Assembly: GCA_015486445.1 (NCBI GenBank)
Contig: WFRT01000177.1
Span: 1-44,037 of the forward strand
Direction of reading: 5' to 3'
Source of the DNA: Pseudomonadota bacterium
Lineage (GTDB): Bacteria; Desulfobacterota; Anaeroferrophillalia; Anaeroferrophillales; Tharpellaceae
DNA length: 44,037 nt
Each line of letters begins with the position of its first letter. The stretch's first letter is position 1. Positions 5,801-12,183 of the stretch are shown piece by piece. Below the pieces are notes generated by a model, which did not search any database, was not told where the DNA came from, and was given only the letters and a program-made list of their open reading frames with translations. The position numbers were made by a program, and so were the translations under genes.

Positions 5801-6067
5801 GGAGCAACCTCGATTCTAAAAGGTTCATTCAGGGCGGGCAGATAAAAACACCCGCAACTACACTCAAAGTAAAACATTCCCCGGTTTTTGTCAACTTGCC
5901 GCCGCCCCTTAAAGCCCCGACAGCGGCCCCATTAAAACGGTTGCAAGGAACCGAAAAAGCAAGTAAATATAGCGATGATTGCAGTATTTGACGGTTTGCC
6001 GGCGTCATCCCGCCCGGCCGAGACCCAGCTCCCAACCCGCCATTGAAACCGGCCGCGAAAGCAATTC

Positions 6068-8107
6068 ATGAGACAACTCCTGCCCACTTCCGAAAGCATC
6101 AATGATCTCCTGGCCGAGAACTGGGAACTGCGCTGGAGGGTCTTTGAGGTCTTTTACCGCACCCGGCTTATCCTGTATGACTTTTCCCGCTCCTCACAGG
6201 AGTACCGGCAGGCCCGGGAACTCTGCCGGGAGCTGGCCGGCCGGCTCAATGGCCCGAGCGACGTCAACCTGCACCTGGTTCTGAACGCGGCCTGGTTCCT
6301 GGGGGGCAGCCATTTCCTGCTGCTGGTCCTGGAAAAGATCGGAGTGGACGACCCGGAAACGGGCGATGCGGAAACCCTGCGCTGTAAAAAACCACTCAAC
6401 GCCAACCAGCCCGACGCCTCTTTTTACGACTATTTCCACTCCCTGCTGCGACGCGGCAAGGCCCTGGACGCCACGGCCGAAACCGCCATCCGGATTTTTC
6501 CTCCTGAACACGGATTGAACCTGGTCTGCGCCATCCCCGAATCTGAATCACGCTGCTCCGCCATCAGGCTGCTGCGGCATCATTACCCGGGGGTGTTTTT
6601 CAACCAGCTGCTGCTGCAGGAAGAACCGGAACGACTGGAAAAATTCCCGGAACTGGTGGAATTCATCTCTCCCCCTGTGCCGGCGGGGGAAGAAGAACGG
6701 CTGAAAAACCTCATCACCCCCCTGCTTGAAGCGCACGACTTGAGACTGGACCTGGCCCTGCAGGCAACAGCCCGGCTGGAACTCAGATCTTTAGCGAAGC
6801 AACTCGACAAACTTCCCGACGACCTTTTAACCCTCGCCACGAAAGCCCGCCTCGGGGACCGGGAAAGCTGCCGCAAACTGCTCAAAAGCGCGACTTCATG
6901 GCGGCGCGGCAAAAGGACGCAAGCCCTTTCCCGGCTCGGAGCCTGCCGGCGACAGCCGGAAGTTTTCGAACTCTTGCAAGAGCGCCTGCGCAAGGGCAGC
7001 CAGGAAGAGAGGCGCATCGTTCTCGACACCCTGGCCGACGAACCCGACCGACAGGTCCTGGGCCTTTTGCTGGAGCGCCTGGAACAGAGCTGGGACCACG
7101 ATGAAAGCCGGCTTCTGCTCAGGACCATATCCGCCCATCCCTGGCCCGACCTGCCCGTAAACGAGGCCCGGGAAATTGCCGACCGGCTGGCCGAACTGGC
7201 GGACAGCATCGAACTCTATCCCGAGCTCACGGCGGCGGCGGCCCGGTTTCCCTGCAGTGAAAAATGGAAAGAGTTCCTGCTGAGCCGGGTCAAATCCCCG
7301 ATTCTCAAGCCGCACTACCGGGAAATCGCCCTTTTCATGACCCGCTTTGCCGACCAGGAAGCCATCCGCCGCCACCTGAGCAAACTGCTGCTGGATGTCG
7401 ACTGGTCCTTCTCCTACCGCCTGCTCAGCCTGCTGGCGCCGGTTTTTACCAGCGCCGACGTCCCCCTCCTCCTGGGCCTGCTGAAAGACCGCGAAGAGCA
7501 CCGGGAACTGACCATCAAAGAGCGCCTGACCCGGGGACGGGACCTGGAACAACTGCCCGAGGCCCTGGCGGAATTTTTCCAGCAGCAGCCGTCAATCGCC
7601 CGGCAGGTTGTCGAAAAACTGCTCACCGGGGTGGTTACCGGAGCCTTCAACACCCCGGAAAAACTGTTTGCCGAACTGCGGCGGGAACCGGCCGAACTCG
7701 CCGAACTGCTGCTGGGATCGGCCGGGGAAAACCAGACCGCGGAAACCGTCAGCCTGCCCCGCCTGCTGGTCTGGCACCTGCTCTCGGCAATCAAGGTTGA
7801 CGGCAGCGATTGTTTTGCGCTAGTAGTACATCGAACCCGGCGTTACGACGGCTATTTCCGGCACCGGATCAGCGCCGTCCTCAATCGCCTGCTGGAACAG
7901 GAAAACGAATTGCAGGATCCCGGCAACCTGCCGATCCTGCGCCTGATCATCGACTTTATCCGGGGCCGTTCCGAATTTGACGAGTTGCGCCGGAAACTGC
8001 TTGACCGGGTTGCACTGGTCACTCGGCGCTGCCGTGAACTGAAGGTTTTCAGCGAAGCCTCTCAAACCCGGGACCTGATGGTTTTCAAGATCAGGAAACT
8101 GGGATAG
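6068..8107 (+). CDS. Hypothetical 679-aa Leu/Arg/Glu-rich helical-repeat (HEAT/ARM-like) protein
   Basis: ATG at 6068. No signal peptide or TM segment and no catalytic motif recognised. Segments such as ERRIVLDTLADEPDRQVLGLLLERLEQ and RLGDRESCRKLLKSATSW look like HEAT-like helical hairpins. The stop lies 13 nt before the next gene. Confidence 0.5.
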   Translation: MRQLLPTSESINDLLAENWELRWRVFEVFYRTRLILYDFSRSSQEYRQARELCRELAGRLNGPSDVNLHLVLNAAWFLGGSHFLLLVLEKIGVDDPETGDAETLRCKKPLNANQPDASFYDYFHSLLRRGKALDATAETAIRIFPPEHGLNLVCAIPESESRCSAIRLLRHHYPGVFFNQLLLQEEPERLEKFPELVEFISPPVPAGEEERLKNLITPLLEAHDLRLDLALQATARLELRSLAKQLDKLPDDLLTLATKARLGDRESCRKLLKSATSWRRGKRTQALSRLGACRRQPEVFELLQERLRKGSQEERRIVLDTLADEPDRQVLGLLLERLEQSWDHDESRLLLRTISAHPWPDLPVNEAREIADRLAELADSIELYPELTAAAARFPCSEKWKEFLLSRVKSPILKPHYREIALFMTRFADQEAIRRHLSKLLLDVDWSFSYRLLSLLAPVFTSADVPLLLGLLKDREEHRELTIKERLTRGRDLEQLPEALAEFFQQQPSIARQVVEKLLTGVVTGAFNTPEKLFAELRREPAELAELLLGSAGENQTAETVSLPRLLVWHLLSAIKVDGSDCFALVVHRTRRYDGYFRHRISAVLNRLLEQENELQDPGNLPILRLIIDFIRGRSEFDELRRKLLDRVALVTRRCRELKVFSEASQTRDLMVFKIRKLG

Positions 8108-8120
8108 GCTTGAGTCTCTC

Positions 8121-9638
8121 ATGGGCATGAACATCTCGATATTTTTCAACAACGTCAACCTGCTGGTCTACGGCCAGGATGAAGAGACCGGAAAAATCGA
8201 ACCGGTCCACCTGGGCGACATCTCGACCACGGTTGAAATCATGACCACCCGGGGCCCGGAAACACTCCACCTGGTTCCGGCCATGATCTGCTACGGCGAC
8301 CGCATCTACTGCGGCCAGGAGGTCTTCAGCCAGAAAAAATTCAACTCCCCGGCAACCTTCAAATACATGAAGCAGTATATCGGCAAAGGCCAGCATCTGC
8401 ACCGGATTATCGGCGACCAGGAGATTTCGACCTTCCAGGCGGCCAGCGACCTGATGATCAACATTATCGACCGGATCCACGAACGCTACGGCCGGGAGAA
8501 CATCGGTATGATCGTTTTCATTGTCGAACCGTTGAACTTCTCGGTCTTTGCCTCACTCATCGAAAGCTTCTGCCTGCGCATCGGCCTGGTCAACTACAAG
8601 GTCGTGGACGAAGCGGTCTGCGCCCTGCTCGAATACAACCTCGCCAACCAGCTCGACCACCACCTGATCTATCTCCATTTCGGCTACACGACCATCGACC
8701 TGACCCTGCTCAAGGTCACCGAGAGCAACCGCGAACCCCGCCTGAAAAGTGTCATCATCTGCAGCATGCACAAAAATTACGGGGCCGTCGATATCGACAA
8801 GACGATCCAGGACTACTTTGCCGACCGCTGCCAGATCAGCATGAAAAAAGCCCGGGAAATCAGGGAGCAGCTGAATCGCCGGCCCCACTACCAGGAGACG
8901 GTCGACGGCCGGGAACTCAAGCTTTCCCGGCAGCAGCTCCATGTCATGCTGGACCGGAAAGGCTACGGCGAGGAGCTCAAGGTCCTGTTGCGCGACCTCT
9001 TCGACCTGGCCTCGGGTTACGGCGTCACTTACGAAAACATCAACTATGTTCTGGGTACCGGGCTGAGCCTGCCGACCCCTTACTACCACGATATCCTGAA
9101 GGCCTTTTTCGGCCCCAAGTTTCTCAGCCGGAAAGCCCACGACGCGATCCCTCTCGGGGCCCTGCGCTACCTCCAGAAGGGGGGCCGCCAGGCCACCATC
9201 AAGGCCAACTACGCCCTGCGCAGCCGCACCGCCCGGGGCGAAGGCTACCGTTTTGACATCATCGTTCCCAAGGGCACCCCCTACCCGACCCAGAACGGGG
9301 TTACCAGCATCATCGCCAACGGCTTTTATGCCGGCCAGATCGAGGTCGAACTCGATATCTTCCGCATGGACCGGCCCGAAAGCAGCAGCGACCGGGAAAT
9401 CGTCATCGACGATACCGGCCGGATGCAGCTGGAAGAGAACCTGGGCGACGAGCAGCAGTCTTTCATCAACGAAGCCAGCCCCGAGATCATCCCCCTGGAC
9501 CCGCCGGCCCTGGACAACGAACGCCGCCTGGAAATTACCTTCGACATCAGCCTGAACCGCGACCTCCTGATAACCGTCAAGGACTTGAGGCGCAACCAGA
9601 CGATCTGGAAACGAAAAAAATCGGTGCGCCTGGAATGA
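8121..9638 (+). CDS. Hsp70/DnaK-superfamily protein with degenerate nucleotide-binding motifs (NBD plus beta-sandwich SBD-like C-terminus, no helical lid)
   Basis: Collinear matches to DnaK landmarks, listed as ORF vs DnaK. VPAMICYGDRIYCGQEV vs TPSIIAY..LVGQPA. VFIVEPLNFS vs VITVPAYFND. KVVDEAVCALLEYN vs RIINEPTAAALAYG. YLHFGYTTIDLT vs YDLGGGTFDIS. VLGTGLSLPTP..ILKAFFG vs ILVGGQTRMP..VAEFFG. IIVPKGTPYPTQ vs LIAKNTTIPTK. RLEITFDISLNRDLLITVKD vs [20 protein letters not shown]. Confidence 0.75.
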   Translation: MGMNISIFFNNVNLLVYGQDEETGKIEPVHLGDISTTVEIMTTRGPETLHLVPAMICYGDRIYCGQEVFSQKKFNSPATFKYMKQYIGKGQHLHRIIGDQEISTFQAASDLMINIIDRIHERYGRENIGMIVFIVEPLNFSVFASLIESFCLRIGLVNYKVVDEAVCALLEYNLANQLDHHLIYLHFGYTTIDLTLLKVTESNREPRLKSVIICSMHKNYGAVDIDKTIQDYFADRCQISMKKAREIREQLNRRPHYQETVDGRELKLSRQQLHVMLDRKGYGEELKVLLRDLFDLASGYGVTYENINYVLGTGLSLPTPYYHDILKAFFGPKFLSRKAHDAIPLGALRYLQKGGRQATIKANYALRSRTARGEGYRFDIIVPKGTPYPTQNGVTSIIANGFYAGQIEVELDIFRMDRPESSSDREIVIDDTGRMQLEENLGDEQQSFINEASPEIIPLDPPALDNERRLEITFDISLNRDLLITVKDLRRNQTIWKRKKSVRLE

Positions 9639-9847
9639 AAAACGAAAACCTCGAAACCCGGCCGGCGGCTCTCCGTTCCCGCGCTCCCGAAAAACCGCCG
9701 CGGCAGACTTTCATCACGATCTCCCCGGATGGCGAAATTGCCGCCTGGGGGCTTGATCCAGACGTGGAAAAACTGATTTTGCGCTTGACCGGAAACCGGG
9801 AGTTGATTAAAGCTAACCGGAAAATGGCCTACGAATTGTGCGGTTAA
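9635..9847 (+). CDS. Hypothetical 70-aa protein, translationally coupled to the Hsp70-like gene
   Basis: Its ATG overlaps the upstream TGA (ATGA at 9635-9638). The ORF fills the gap to the AAA+ gene (46 nt remain). No recognisable family. Confidence 0.45.
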   Translation: MKNENLETRPAALRSRAPEKPPRQTFITISPDGEIAAWGLDPDVEKLILRLTGNRELIKANRKMAYELCG

Positions 9848-9893
9848 AATCTCCCGGCCGCCGCTGCCGGCCGGCACAGCAAGGGGACCAGCG

Positions 9894-11384
9894 ATGAACT
9901 TTCTCGACAATTTCAACACGACGATCCGCAGCAACCATTCCCTGATCAACATCGTAACTTACGAAGAGGCCAGGTTTCTCTTGATGGTGGCCGAGTCCCC
10001 GTTGTTCAAGGACAAAAGCATCATCGTCTGGGACCTGGCCGACGGCTTCAAGACGATCAAGGGCAGCACCAGCGGCATCAAGAACAAGGAGCGCGCCGAC
10101 CCGATCCACTGCCTCCAGGAAGTCAAGAAGTTCAGCGGCAACGCTATCTTCATCCTGCGCGACTTCCACCTGCATTTCCGGGAAAGCATCATCCTGCGCT
10201 CGCTGCGCAACCTCAACCAGGACCTGCGCGCGAGCAAAAAGACCATCGTCATAACCACCCCGACCTCCACCCTGCCGGCGGAACTGCGTGAAGATGTCTG
10301 CCAGATCGAGCTTGAACTGCCGGGCTACAAGGAGATCGAGAAGGAACTCGACAACGTCGTTGCCAGCACGTCCCAGCCCAATCCGCCGACCCCGCAGCTC
10401 AAGGAAAAGATTGTCGAATCGACCCTGGGACTGTCGATGGTCAACATCAAGAACCTGTTTTCCCGAATCATCATCACCCACGGGGTTATCGATGAACGGG
10501 CGATAGAGATCATCCTGCACGAAAAACGCAGCATCATCAAGAAAGGGGAGATCCTCGAATTCTTTCCGGTCCAGGAAAGCCTCAACGATATCGGCGGGCT
10601 GGAAAATCTCAAGGCCTGGCTGCGCAAGCGCAGCCAGGTTTTCACCCACAAGGCCAAGGACTACGGCCTGCCGGCCCCCAAGGGAATCCTGATCATCGGT
10701 ATTCAGGGCACCGGCAAAAGCCTGACCGCCAAGGCCACGGCCGGGCTCTGGAAACTGCCGCTGCTGCGCATGGACCTGGGCAAGGTCTTCGGCAGCCTGC
10801 TGGGTGAATCGGAACAGAATCTGCGCCAGGCCATCAACCTGGCCGAAACCATTTCACCCTGCATTCTCTGGGTTGACGAGTTGGAAAAAGCCTTTGCCGG
10901 CAGCACCGGCGGGGCCGGCGACGGCGGCACCTCGGCCCGCATTCTCGGCACCTTTCTCACCTGGATGCAGGAAAAAACCAAGCCGGTCTTCATCATCGCC
11001 ACCGGCAACGACGTCGCCCAACTGCCGCCCGAGTTGATGCGCAAGGGCCGCTTCGACGAAATCTTCTTTGTCGACCTGCCCTCCAATTCGGAGCGCCAGG
11101 CGATTTTCAAGGTCCTGCTCGAGAAGGTCCGGCCGGTGATCCGCCAGTTCAACCTTGAAAAACTGGCCGAGGCCACCGAAGGCTACAGCGGAGCCGAAAT
11201 CGAGCAGATCATCTATGACGCGATGTTCAATGCCTTCGACGACAACCAGCGTGAATTTACCGAAGAAGACATCCTGGGCAGCGTTTCGGAGATCATCCCG
11301 ATTTCACGCCTGATGAGTGAGAAGATCGGGGCCCTCAGAACCTGGGCCACGCACCGGACCCGCAAGGCCAACAGCGAAACCTGA
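9894..11384 (+). CDS. Classical-clade AAA+ ATPase, Ycf46-like (single AAA module with ~250-aa N-terminal domain)
   Basis: Walker A GIQGTGKS, Walker B ILWVDELEKAF, sensor-1/SRH FIIATGNDVAQLPPELMRKGRFDEIFFVDLP, lid GYSGAEIEQI. The N-terminal IRSNHSLINIVTYEEARFL resembles the Ycf46 family N-domain as I recall it. SD-like AAGGGGA sits upstream. Confidence 0.85.
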   Translation: MNFLDNFNTTIRSNHSLINIVTYEEARFLLMVAESPLFKDKSIIVWDLADGFKTIKGSTSGIKNKERADPIHCLQEVKKFSGNAIFILRDFHLHFRESIILRSLRNLNQDLRASKKTIVITTPTSTLPAELREDVCQIELELPGYKEIEKELDNVVASTSQPNPPTPQLKEKIVESTLGLSMVNIKNLFSRIIITHGVIDERAIEIILHEKRSIIKKGEILEFFPVQESLNDIGGLENLKAWLRKRSQVFTHKAKDYGLPAPKGILIIGIQGTGKSLTAKATAGLWKLPLLRMDLGKVFGSLLGESEQNLRQAINLAETISPCILWVDELEKAFAGSTGGAGDGGTSARILGTFLTWMQEKTKPVFIIATGNDVAQLPPELMRKGRFDEIFFVDLPSNSERQAIFKVLLEKVRPVIRQFNLEKLAEATEGYSGAEIEQIIYDAMFNAFDDNQREFTEEDILGSVSEIIPISRLMSEKIGALRTWATHRTRKANSET

Positions 11385-11464
11385 GAAGTATCCGACTAAA
11401 CCTTTGGCAACCCAGTGAGGGAGCGGCCGCGAAACCAGGCCATGCGCCCCGAAGGAGTACGGCA

Positions 11465-11842
11465 ATGTCACATTTCACCAAGCTCAGAACCAAGATCACC
11501 GACAAGATCTTCCTGAAAAAAGCGATCAGCGACATGGAACTGGAATACGAGGAGGGCAAGCTCAAGGCCAGGGGCTGGCTCTGGAAAAGGGAAAAGGCCG
11601 ACCTGATCATCCCGACCAAAAGCGGCTATGACATAGGTTTCCGCTTCAACGGTGAAACCTACGACATCGTCGCCGACTGGGACTCGATCAAGGACGTCGA
11701 CCAGGAGACTTTCGTCAATACCCTGAGTCAGCGCTACGCCTACAACGTAGTCAAGGAAACCCTGGCCCAGCAGGGTTTCCTCCTGACCGAGGAACAGGTC
11801 AAAAGCGGCAACATCAACCTGACCCTGAGCCGGGAGCAGTAG
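11465..11842 (+). CDS. DUF1257 (Ycf35-like) protein
   Basis: 125-aa ORF starting MSHFTKLRTKITDKIFLKKAISDMELEYEEG. The MSHF..I.T.I.D start is the hallmark I associate with DUF1257/Ycf35. Strong SD GAAGGAG lies 7 nt upstream. Confidence 0.7.
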   Translation: MSHFTKLRTKITDKIFLKKAISDMELEYEEGKLKARGWLWKREKADLIIPTKSGYDIGFRFNGETYDIVADWDSIKDVDQETFVNTLSQRYAYNVVKETLAQQGFLLTEEQVKSGNINLTLSREQ

Positions 11843-11897
11843 CTCCCCATACCCGACCGGTCACCTTTTCCGGCCTTAGACACGGAGACCAGAAATC

Positions 11898-12095
11898 ATG
11901 GAAAAAATCAATATCACGATCGCCCGGGACGGTTCCGTCAAACTTGAACTGGACGGCTTTACCGGCGGCAAGTGCATGGAAGCGACCAAGGCCCTGGAGA
12001 CCCTGCTGGGCGGCGAAGTAATCGAGCGGGAACTGACCAGCGAATACTACGCGGCCGAAGAGGTCAAACAGGAAGAAAAACTTTCCGCGACCTGA
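11898..12095 (+). CDS. DUF2997 protein
   Basis: 65-aa ORF MEKINITIARDGSVKLELDGFTGGKCMEATKALETLLGGEVIERELTSEYY. It fits the I.I..DG.V.....G..G..C...T..LE..LG......T.EYY pattern I associate with DUF2997. Follows the DUF1257 gene, as is typical for this pair. Confidence 0.65.
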   Translation: MEKINITIARDGSVKLELDGFTGGKCMEATKALETLLGGEVIERELTSEYYAAEEVKQEEKLSAT

Positions 12096-12131: not shown

Positions 12132-12174
12132 AAAGGGGCGCCCGCAAAACTTACGGACGCCCCTTTTCTGTTTT
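12132..12174 (+). terminator. Rho-independent terminator ending the six-gene operon (possibly bidirectional, also serving asd)
   Basis: Stem AAAGGGGCG (12132-12140) / CGCCCCTTT (12158-12166) followed by TCTGTTTT. An A-rich left flank gives a weaker U-tract on the minus strand. Confidence 0.8.
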
Positions 12175-12183
12175 CCTTAACTT

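Follow-up and report, generated by a model that had tools for sequence, protein, structure and literature searches.

An operon in the genome of a Tharpellaceae bacterium (Desulfobacterota) places an Hsp70-like protein beside an AAA+ ATPase and members of the DUF1257 and DUF2997 families, and poses the question of what such proteins might do together. It lies on the plus strand of contig WFRT01000177.1 (assembly GCA_015486445.1), of which positions 1–44,037, the whole 44,037-nucleotide stretch of DNA that was analysed, are referred to here as the window. To our knowledge, Ycf46 and Ycf35, the families to which its AAA+ and DUF1257 proteins are assigned, have for decades been carried as conserved ‘hypothetical chloroplast reading frames’ with no known mechanism, and DUF2997 is equally blank. 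Comparative analysis indicates that the operon is a reduced form of a widespread gene cluster with GrpE-like, WD40 and radical-SAM members, a relationship overlooked by an earlier note made from the sequence of this DNA alone. We tentatively propose, as a reading that we hold to be plausible though somewhat short of probable, that its six genes encode a self-contained ATP-driven protein-remodelling complex, with the following components:

6068–8107, plus strand: g1, 679 aa; predicted HEAT/ARM-type alpha-solenoid
8121–9638, plus strand: g2, 505 aa; predicted lid-less Hsp70 paralogue, with a nucleotide-binding domain (NBD) and the beta part of a substrate-binding domain (SBD-beta), and with degenerate ATP-binding motifs
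9635–9847, plus strand: g3, 70 aa; clade-specific protein
9894–11384, plus strand: g4, 496 aa; single-ring classic AAA+ ATPase, presumably Ycf46-type, with an N-domain of ~225 aa
11465–11842, plus strand: g5, 125 aa; DUF1257/Ycf35 family
11898–12095, plus strand: g6, 65 aa; DUF2997

Conservation of the six-gene cassette

The six open reading frames (ORFs) called on the window at 6068–12095 are co-directional and closely packed, with a first junction of 13 nt, a 4-nt ATGA overlap between g2 and g3, and gaps of 46, 80 and 55 nt thereafter. Among approximately 21 related loci, drawn from Candidatus (Ca.) Tharpella and other metagenome-assembled genomes (MAGs) labelled ‘Deltaproteobacteria’ or Thermodesulfobacteriota, the order g1-g2-g3-g4-g5-g6 is kept in every sufficiently long contig, and the cassette is found in at least three different neighbourhoods with varying flanking genes: some loci share the flanks of the window, and others, L001 among them, are bordered instead by histidine kinases and a flavodoxin gene. 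Because the same six genes recur in the same order beside different flanks, their adjacency is more than would be expected by chance. No close homologue of g2 (57–92% identity) was found outside MAGs that carry the labels Deltaproteobacteria, Thermodesulfobacteriota or Ca. Tharpella. Mean identities across this clade are 86% for g4, 81% for g5, 76% for g2, 67% for g6, 49% for g1 and 48% for g3, g1 being the fastest-evolving of the larger members beside slow partners.

Taken together, the tight spacing, the single overlap, the lack of internal terminator-like structure, the strong terminal hairpin described below and the conserved gene order indicate that g1–g6 form one predicted operon. The earlier note had drawn the same picture of six packed co-directional ORFs with these junctions and a closing terminator, all of which were found where it had placed them. 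The cassette that it described is, moreover, conserved as a unit in its clade, and the homologues, whose possible scattering it had put forward for checking, are co-localised and follow the same order in the long contigs.

An Hsp70 paralogue without ATP-binding motifs

On its own, g2 has no Pfam match at E ≤ 0.1 and scores 25.8 bits against the NCBIfam HscA model, whose cut-off of 743 it does not pass. The profile of its family matches the solved structures of DnaK, BiP and Hsc70 at 1.5e-26, with a second matching stretch on SBD-beta (E..R.E.TFDI..N..L.V..KD), and its distant relatives carry PF00012, in agreement with the earlier description of the protein as Hsp70-like. The polypeptide stops about 20 residues past the last SBD-beta strand, where the helical lid would begin, and a Pfam scan of the window cassette found no J-domain among the six proteins.

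Hsp70 proteins bind ATP through three signatures, phosphate-1 (DxGT[TS]), phosphate-2 (DxGGGT) and adenosine (GG..IP). The corresponding segments of g2 and of its relatives read as follows:

phosphate-1 motif: DFGTSN in the relatives, FFNNVN in g2
phosphate-2 motif: DFGGGT in the relatives, HFGYTT in g2
adenosine motif: VGGSS.IP in the relatives, GTGLSLPTP in g2

In the alignment, every full-length member of the window clade has all three motifs degenerate, with two sub-clades that have drifted to different sequences. Relatives of g2 were collected both in a one-genome-per-species scan (201 matches in 185,579 species genomes) and in an exhaustive hidden Markov model (HMM) search (305 clusters at 50% identity, E ≤ 1e-30), and 60 distant loci, where the g2 relatives stand at 24–26% identity, were analysed with iterated HMMs. 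Among the distant relatives, 58 of 60 retain the ATP motifs intact, and the other two, both from Leptolinea, depart from them slightly. Judged by these motifs, g2 is a predicted pseudo-ATPase that has lost nucleotide binding, as the earlier note suspected when it called the protein catalytically dead; that it is 76% conserved despite the lost motifs argues that it has been retained for an ATP-free job.

A wider cluster shared across phyla

The distant members of the cluster come from Chloroflexota (many of them Anaerolineae), Desulfomonilaceae, Syntrophales, Planctomycetota, Verrucomicrobia, Moduliflexus and cyanobacteria, and span at least six phyla. In its full order the cluster encodes an AAA+ ATPase, a HEAT+WD40 protein, a GrpE-like protein, an ATP-competent lid-less Hsp70, DUF1257, DUF2997 and an NrdG-like radical-SAM protein. 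At 44 of 55 distant loci the Hsp70-like gene is followed at once by DUF1257 and DUF2997 genes, and at 31 of 51 a small radical-SAM gene comes after DUF2997. Upstream of the Hsp70-like gene are found a g4-family AAA+ gene on the same strand (24 of 43), the gene for a large HEAT+WD40 protein, placed between the AAA+ and Hsp70-like genes (29 of 43), and, directly adjoining, a GrpE-like gene (27 of 57).

The GrpE-like family is recognisable both by Pfam GrpE matches in 17 of its 22 members and by a profile match to GrpE structures at 1.6e-8 over the full length. Such a gene adjoins 27 of the 56 ATP-competent Hsp70-like genes versus none of the 18 degenerate ones (Fisher p = 1.2e-4), a co-loss that is to be expected, since an exchange factor would be useless once nucleotide binding had been lost. 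Furthermore, several parts of the cluster occur as single polypeptides, namely Hsp70-HEAT (P0131, P0144, P0155, P0168 and P0179), Hsp70-WD40 (P0133 and P0160) and DUF1257-HEAT-WD40 (L059) fusions, which implies that the parts cooperate physically.

The complete ATP-competent version is present in a cultured, fully sequenced strain, Pseudanabaena galeata CCNP1313, on plasmid pPg_01 (L092 1–16622), which offers a tractable model. There, RefSeq annotates GrpE, an Hsp70 family protein, DUF1257, DUF2997 and an AAA family ATPase, in a set bordered by WD40 genes. RelE/ParE and PIN toxin-antitoxin modules break up the cluster, and between DUF1257 and DUF2997 lie two inserted genes, one for an AAA_21/AbiEii-like ATPase and one of 167 aa. 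The AAA+-DUF1257(-DUF2997) linkage occurs without an Hsp70-like gene on a Pseudanabaena chromosome (next to psaA/psaB) and in a metagenomic locus (L089), which makes the triad the older element and the Hsp70/GrpE/HEAT-WD40 arm an add-on. Found in the clade, in distant loci, in Pseudanabaena and in L089, the triad is indeed the recurring neighbourhood that the earlier note had taken it to be. In L089 (1–9170), it is accompanied by three FHA proteins, one of them with a long coiled coil, and by eCIS_core/DUF4157, pentapeptide and TPR proteins, with a Y1 transposase gene nearby. A search of 2.9 million viral contigs returned no Hsp70-like relative and a single partial DUF1257 match.

These linkages bear on a further alternative, in which the six genes are neighbours without a functional relation or g2, decaying towards a pseudogene, has no function. 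Promoters could lie within the gaps of 80 and 55 nt, and the catalytic motifs of g2 are lost; nonetheless, we find such an account scarcely credible, since the order is kept in 21 loci of differing contexts, linkage and fusion of these families recur from phylum to phylum, the internal gaps have no terminator-like structure, and g2 is full-length, free of frameshifts and stops, and 76–92% identical among MAGs. The comparative data already largely refute it.

The AAA+ ATPase

The g4 protein matches PF00004 (2e-29) and AAA_lid_3 (3e-12), both above the Pfam cut-offs, and its closest solved relatives are the Cdc48/p97 D2 domains (1e-55). Among 44 family members, Walker A (GIQGTGKS), Walker B (ILWVDELE), sensor-1 (ATGN) and the second region of homology (SRH; RKGRFDE) are conserved. 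With its catalytic motifs intact, g4 looks like an active motor, and the earlier description of an AAA+ protein with complete Walker A/B motifs and SRH arginines, predicted to be active, holds on this evidence. The earlier note overlooked pore loop 1, where the residue is aliphatic instead of aromatic: the loop reads S-L-[LV]-G family-wide (S-L-L-G in the window), aligned with M-W-F-G of Cdc48/p97 D2 but resembling K-L-A-G of D1. The N-domain of ~225 residues is conserved, yet gave no match in a PDB sequence search.

Over 496 aa, g4 is 42% identical to the Pseudanabaena AAA protein encoded directly upstream of DUF1257, and over its full length it is 46% identical to the Anaerolinea AAA protein of the wider cluster. 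From its DUF1257 context, we take it to be presumably of the Ycf46 type, the proteins compared with g4 including none named Ycf46.

Homologues of g4 are also carried by phages. The protein matches phrog_8638 over its full length, and gp96 of Mycobacterium phage Corndog (L087 2923–4623) is a full-length homologue, N-domain included, with 31% identity over 99%; 62 further phage records with full-length homologues comprise cluster-O mycobacteriophages and phages of Pseudomonas, Rhizobium, Rhodobacter and Stenotrophomonas. The phage groups that bear these g4 homologues gave no DUF1257 match, phage DUF1257 being seen only in cyanophages and marine viruses.

The DUF1257 and DUF2997 proteins

The two small downstream proteins are assigned to their families well within the Pfam thresholds: g5 matches DUF1257 (PF06868) at 2.5e-25, with 89.1 bits against a cut-off of 22.2, and g6 matches DUF2997 (PF11211) at 8e-17 over the full profile length, with 61.3 bits against a cut-off of 24.1. 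The earlier assignments of DUF1257, DUF2997 and AAA+ are thus each above the Pfam cut-off. PDB sequence searches with g5 and with g6 gave no match. The N-terminal M-S-H-F-T of g5 (window 11465–11479) is invariant in 32 family sequences, from Tharpella-type MAGs to cyanobacteria, and could serve in metal binding, recognition or catalysis; an MSH motif has also been described for plastid Ycf35 (PMC13060386). In the AlphaFold2 (AF2) model, which has a predicted local distance difference test (pLDDT) score of 92.9, g5 folds as an alpha+beta sandwich in which G37 occupies the tip of a beta-hairpin, where R-G-[YWF] is invariant. A Foldseek search of the PDB with this model found no significant neighbour, the best hit (E 0.1) being phosphomutase domain 4, with helix-grip-like folds at about E 1. 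In the g6 family, the pattern G-x-x-G-x-x-C ... T ... E ... LG ... R ... E is invariant in 57 sequences.

The same two families are encoded by the Prochlorococcus phage P-SSM2 (NC_006883.2; L086 2802–3381), as overlapping DUF2997 (PSSM2_178, Pfam 8e-18) and DUF1257 (PSSM2_179, 3e-24) genes that are annotated as hypothetical. The pair lies a few genes downstream of the phage ferredoxin gene and beside DUF6561, and is also found in P-SSM5 and in several marine single-virus genomes.

The radical-SAM protein of the wider cluster resembles the NrdG-type activases of glycyl-radical enzymes (TIGR02491 at 1e-32, 113 bits versus a cut-off of 126; Fer4_12 at 8e-32). Its gene (~190 aa, L027 12203–12772 and 36 other loci) is translationally coupled to DUF2997 in numerous anaerobes, and the cluster contains no NrdD.

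This association raises a different reading, namely that the system serves the maturation or repair of a radical or iron-sulfur protein. The NrdG-like activase would act on DUF1257, DUF2997 or both as its substrate or carrier, with the Hsp70-like and AAA+ proteins loading, unfolding or recycling it, and the window lineage would have kept the chaperone part only. Candidate sites would be the invariant R-G-[YWF] at the DUF1257 hairpin tip (G37 in the AF2 model) and the G-x-x-G-x-x-C of DUF2997. The activase gene directly follows DUF2997 in the 31 of 51 distant loci given above, the stop codon of the one often overlapping the start codon of the other, and stays with g5-g6 where the locus is rearranged; the best score of the Hsp70-like protein is to HscA, the Fe-S assembly chaperone; cyanobacterial DUF2997-Ycf35 is clustered with the ferredoxin Fed7 (PMC4284462); and a ferredoxin gene lies near the pair in P-SSM2. 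We nevertheless judge this reading quite improbable: the cassette of the window clade has no radical-SAM gene, DUF1257 and DUF2997 occur without an activase in oxygenic cyanobacteria, plastids and cyanophages, and no Cys-rich cluster-binding motif is present, the one invariant Cys being that of DUF2997. Moreover, the spacing around R-G-[YWF] is unlike that of the glycyl-radical signature RVxG[YF]. A glycyl-radical motif in DUF1257 was rejected as the primary explanation on the grounds of this spacing and of the presence of the family in oxygenic phototrophs.

The alpha-solenoid and the small g3 protein

Searched by itself, g1 has no Pfam match at E ≤ 0.1, and HEAT_2 (PF13646) is detected in most of its homologues. 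Its AF2 model is all-alpha, with about 42 helices, a pLDDT of 87.3 and a predicted template modelling (TM) score (pTM) of 0.81, and Foldseek aligns it with beta-catenin and, at a probability of ~1.0 and TM scores of 0.25–0.3, with karyopherin, SF3B1, PP2A-A and CAND1, low TM values that are expected because solenoids are flexible. The model thus identifies g1 as a predicted HEAT/ARM-type alpha-solenoid, in keeping with the helical-repeat protein of the earlier note. The comparison of g1 with the HEAT+WD40 family of the wider cluster (hhalign E 3e-3, probability 10%) revealed generic HEAT_2 likeness only, which does not establish orthology between the two.

The C-terminal tail of g1 (residues 658–679, window 8039–8104) is predicted to be disordered, with a pLDDT of ~40, below 50, and about half of the last 23 residues (..EASQTRDLMVFKIRKLG) are at least 90% conserved. 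A hydrophobic core between basic residues gives the tail the appearance of an Hsp70-binding peptide. Its docking site may be the SBD of g2 or the AAA+ ring.

In each of the 21 related loci the 70-aa g3 protein is encoded at the same place, and it was found nowhere else. Its conserved slot, its conserved core motifs, with an invariant L-C-G at the end, and the excess of third-position changes among its pairwise differences (5528/4637/8211 by codon position) argue that g3 is a real gene, and the ATGA overlap indicates that it is, by prediction, translationally coupled to g2. No match was found in Pfam, NCBIfam, PADLOC or PHROGs. Profile comparisons with the GrpE-like, DUF1257 and HEAT-WD40 families revealed no similarity, and an alignment with DUF2997 (16 columns, E 1e-3) was too weak to use.

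Local setting and expression signals

The genes on either side of the operon (AsmA-like, tautomerase, asd, leuD and leuC, names that are Pfam labels transferred from the syntenic locus L004) are all on the minus strand, so that the operon does oppose housekeeping flanks, as the earlier note had it. Two features would delimit the transcript:

5941–5969, plus strand: candidate sigma-70-like promoter, TTGCAA, 17 nt, TAAATA; ~95 nt upstream of g1; weak, tentative
12132–12175, plus strand: intrinsic terminator, GC-rich hairpin and U-tract between the convergent g6 and asd

The terminator hairpin (12132–12166), followed by UUUUCUGUUUU, folds with a free energy of -20 kcal/mol (z = -4.1), and none of 200 shuffled sequences folds equally well; a simple consensus scan missed it on account of its 9-nt loop and one mismatch. 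An A-rich sequence precedes the hairpin on its 5' side. With g6 and asd convergent, the terminator probably serves both strands. Folding of the three larger internal gaps of the operon, with shuffled controls, gave no significant structure. The block TTGCAA-17-TAAATA is also present in the tautomerase/g1 intergenic region of the syntenic L004, the two sequences being closely related; a consensus promoter scan detected no plus-strand promoter, the 5941–5969 block included, and the block could instead drive the divergent tautomerase gene. An Rfam scan of the whole window found no family at threshold.

A proposed remodelling machine and its main rival

In the complex that we propose, the motor would be the Ycf46-type AAA+ protein g4, presumably as a hexamer, with g5 and g6 as small obligate partners that would act either as an adaptor or regulator or as a committed client. 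The Hsp70-like g2, the HEAT solenoid g1 and g3 would make up an ATP-independent arm for client capture. In most lineages, this arm would consist of a HEAT+WD40 scaffold and an Hsp70 that cycles ATP with the help of a GrpE of its own. The window lineage, by contrast, has an Hsp70 that has lost its nucleotide-binding motifs and no GrpE, and its AAA+ gene has moved beside the Hsp70 gene. From the loss of both nucleotide binding and GrpE, it would follow that g2 serves as an ATP-independent holder or adaptor and that all energy comes from g4. We infer the physical complex, this division of labour, the direction of hand-off and the role from the comparative evidence. For the role, we favour, by analogy, the remodelling of a specific client tied to stress or redox state, because the cyanobacterial (Synechococcus) ycf46 gene belongs to a stress-induced, (p)ppGpp-dependent three-gene operon, whose AAA+ protein interacts with KaiC (bioRxiv 10.1101/2025.07.21.665879).

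In a broader form of the same proposal, the lid-less Hsp70 with its GrpE, the Ycf46-family AAA+ protein, the HEAT/WD40 proteins, Ycf35 and DUF2997 would constitute one hitherto unrecognised cross-phylum machine, joined in many anaerobes by the NrdG-like activase, and the window operon would be its minimal form; we regard this as possible but doubtful. If true, Ycf35 and DUF2997 would be devoted to Hsp70 and AAA+ ATPases as cofactors or clients, possibly modified by the radical-SAM protein, and the Tharpella-type version would be a natural case in which an Hsp70 has come to serve an AAA+ unfoldase as an adaptor that binds no nucleotide.

Several observations weigh against the proposed remodelling complex. 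The extended system is patchy, with 201 matches among the 185,579 species genomes, and a J-domain protein is absent from every version of the cluster. The aliphatic pore loop 1 of g4 may mean that threading is weak or does not take place. Orthology between g1 and the HEAT+WD40 proteins cannot be demonstrated, and a comparison of g1 with an Hsp70-HEAT fusion (hhalign E 9e-4, probability 22%) likewise showed generic HEAT_2 likeness only. The role of g5 within the complex is a guess, its modelled fold having no informative neighbour. Finally, the setting on the pPg_01 megaplasmid, among toxin-antitoxin genes and with the AbiEii-like insert, suits conflict and housekeeping roles alike.

The last point leads to the main rival, a ‘chaperone-thresholded’ conflict system directed against phages or other invaders, in which the HEAT/WD40 proteins would recognise a protein of the invader or tie it up, the response would be gated by the AAA+ and Hsp70-like ATPases, and DUF1257/DUF2997 or unlinked partners would be the effectors. 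The patchy distribution and the movement of the cassette between contexts would suit such a system, as would a fast-evolving g1 (49% identity) beside slow partners. Relatives are accompanied by FHA, pentapeptide, TPR and eCIS_core/DUF4157 proteins (L089), the pPg_01 cluster is broken by RelE/ParE and PIN modules and by the AAA_21/AbiEii-like ATPase, and homologues of g4, g5 and g6 occur in phages. In addition, the canonical Hsp70-like protein partly matches the PADLOC candidate PDC-M61B (2e-12), and both Hsp70+GrpE modules and superstructure-forming repeats are part of the GTPase-centred conflict systems of multicellular bacteria (PMC7159879).

Nevertheless, none of the six proteins has a nuclease, protease, TIR, pore-forming or other effector domain according to Pfam, NCBIfam and PADLOC, and the likeness of g4 to IetA is confined to the AAA core, far under the cut-off and without an IetS. 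Both flanks of the window operon are housekeeping genes without mobile elements, the gene order is stable across Anaerolineae genera, AAA+/DUF1257 is chromosomal in cyanobacteria next to psaA/psaB, Ycf35 is plastid-encoded, and the 2.9 million viral contigs contained no Hsp70-like gene. We consequently consider a conflict system unlikely, if clearly deserving of attention. The defence-type machine that the earlier note envisaged keeps the standing of a possibility, the PADLOC matches being generic AAA ones. Should the system prove to be of this kind after all, it would represent a new, chaperone-gated type.

Comparison with known systems

A full-text literature search, with subscription journals falling outside it, found no description of this architecture, in answer to the earlier note's call to check for one already characterised; the closest multi-term match (Kaur et al. 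2020) concerns different systems. In papers that mention them, DUF1257 and DUF2997 are treated as functionally uncharacterised, and mentions of Ycf46 and Ycf35 are mostly plastid-genome reports. The cluster is thus apparently undescribed, although Hsp70/AAA+ chaperone modules and the Ycf46-Ycf35-DUF2997 neighbourhood were known already.

The conflict systems of Kaur et al. (2020, eLife, PMC7159879) share with the cluster a dedicated Hsp70/GrpE pair, WD40, HEAT, TPR and pentapeptide repeats, and a preference for filamentous or multicellular hosts. Unlike it, they are built on GAP1-N2/DO-GTPases or MoxR-vWA, and none is described with a classic AAA+ protein, DUF1257 or DUF2997. With IetAS, the resemblance lies in the AAA core of g4, which matches the IetA models (PADLOC, 1e-30; NCBIfam IteA, 92.7 bits). 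However, the match is confined to this generic core, the curated cut-off is 510 bits, there is no IetS protease, and the N-domain differs.

A further comparison, with the eukaryotic HspBP1/Fes1/Sil1 exchange factors, had been offered in the earlier note as a speculative role for g1. The likeness is that of an all-alpha solenoid encoded beside an Hsp70-family gene. The proposal finds no support in the partner, since g2 lacks the nucleotide motifs and with them a site on which to exchange; in the ATP-competent relatives, which use a GrpE-like factor while keeping a HEAT protein; or in structure, as no HspBP1/Fes1/Sil1-type factor is among the top 50 Foldseek matches of g1.

The DnaK-GrpE-ClpB system likewise pairs an Hsp70-family protein with a hexameric AAA+ motor, and relatives of the operon encode a GrpE of their own. 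In contrast to ClpB, g4 is a single-ring protein of the classic clade, Cdc48-D2-like and without the M-domain; g2 has neither lid nor ATP site; a J-protein is missing; and DUF1257/DUF2997 are obligate companions, together with a HEAT scaffold. Cdc48/p97/VAT, for their part, include the solved structures nearest to the ATPase domain of g4 (1e-55) and also combine a motor with small or repeat-containing adaptors, but have two rings rather than one and an unrelated N-domain, and g4 has no gene link to ubiquitin-like proteins or the proteasome. Against this background, the window lineage amounts to a natural experiment in which an Hsp70 has apparently lost both ATP binding and its exchange factor, yet strong selection remains, a situation that bears on the capacity of Hsp70 to act as a pure adaptor.

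A last comparison is with the cyanobacterial and plastid Ycf46, Ycf35 and DUF2997 proteins, which belong to the same AAA+ (full-length, to judge by the Pseudanabaena AAA protein encoded upstream of DUF1257), DUF1257 (MSH) and DUF2997 families and have adjacent genes. The cyanobacterial core copies differ in being without the Hsp70-like, HEAT and 70-aa proteins, and their function is known from phenotype and expression only, through stress, (p)ppGpp, KaiC interaction and CO2 use (bioRxiv 10.1101/2025.07.21.665879). Linked, and sometimes fused, to a dedicated Hsp70 with its GrpE, to repeat scaffolds and to an AAA+ motor in the cluster described here, Ycf46, Ycf35 and DUF2997 gain a testable context as predicted parts or clients of a chaperone machine.

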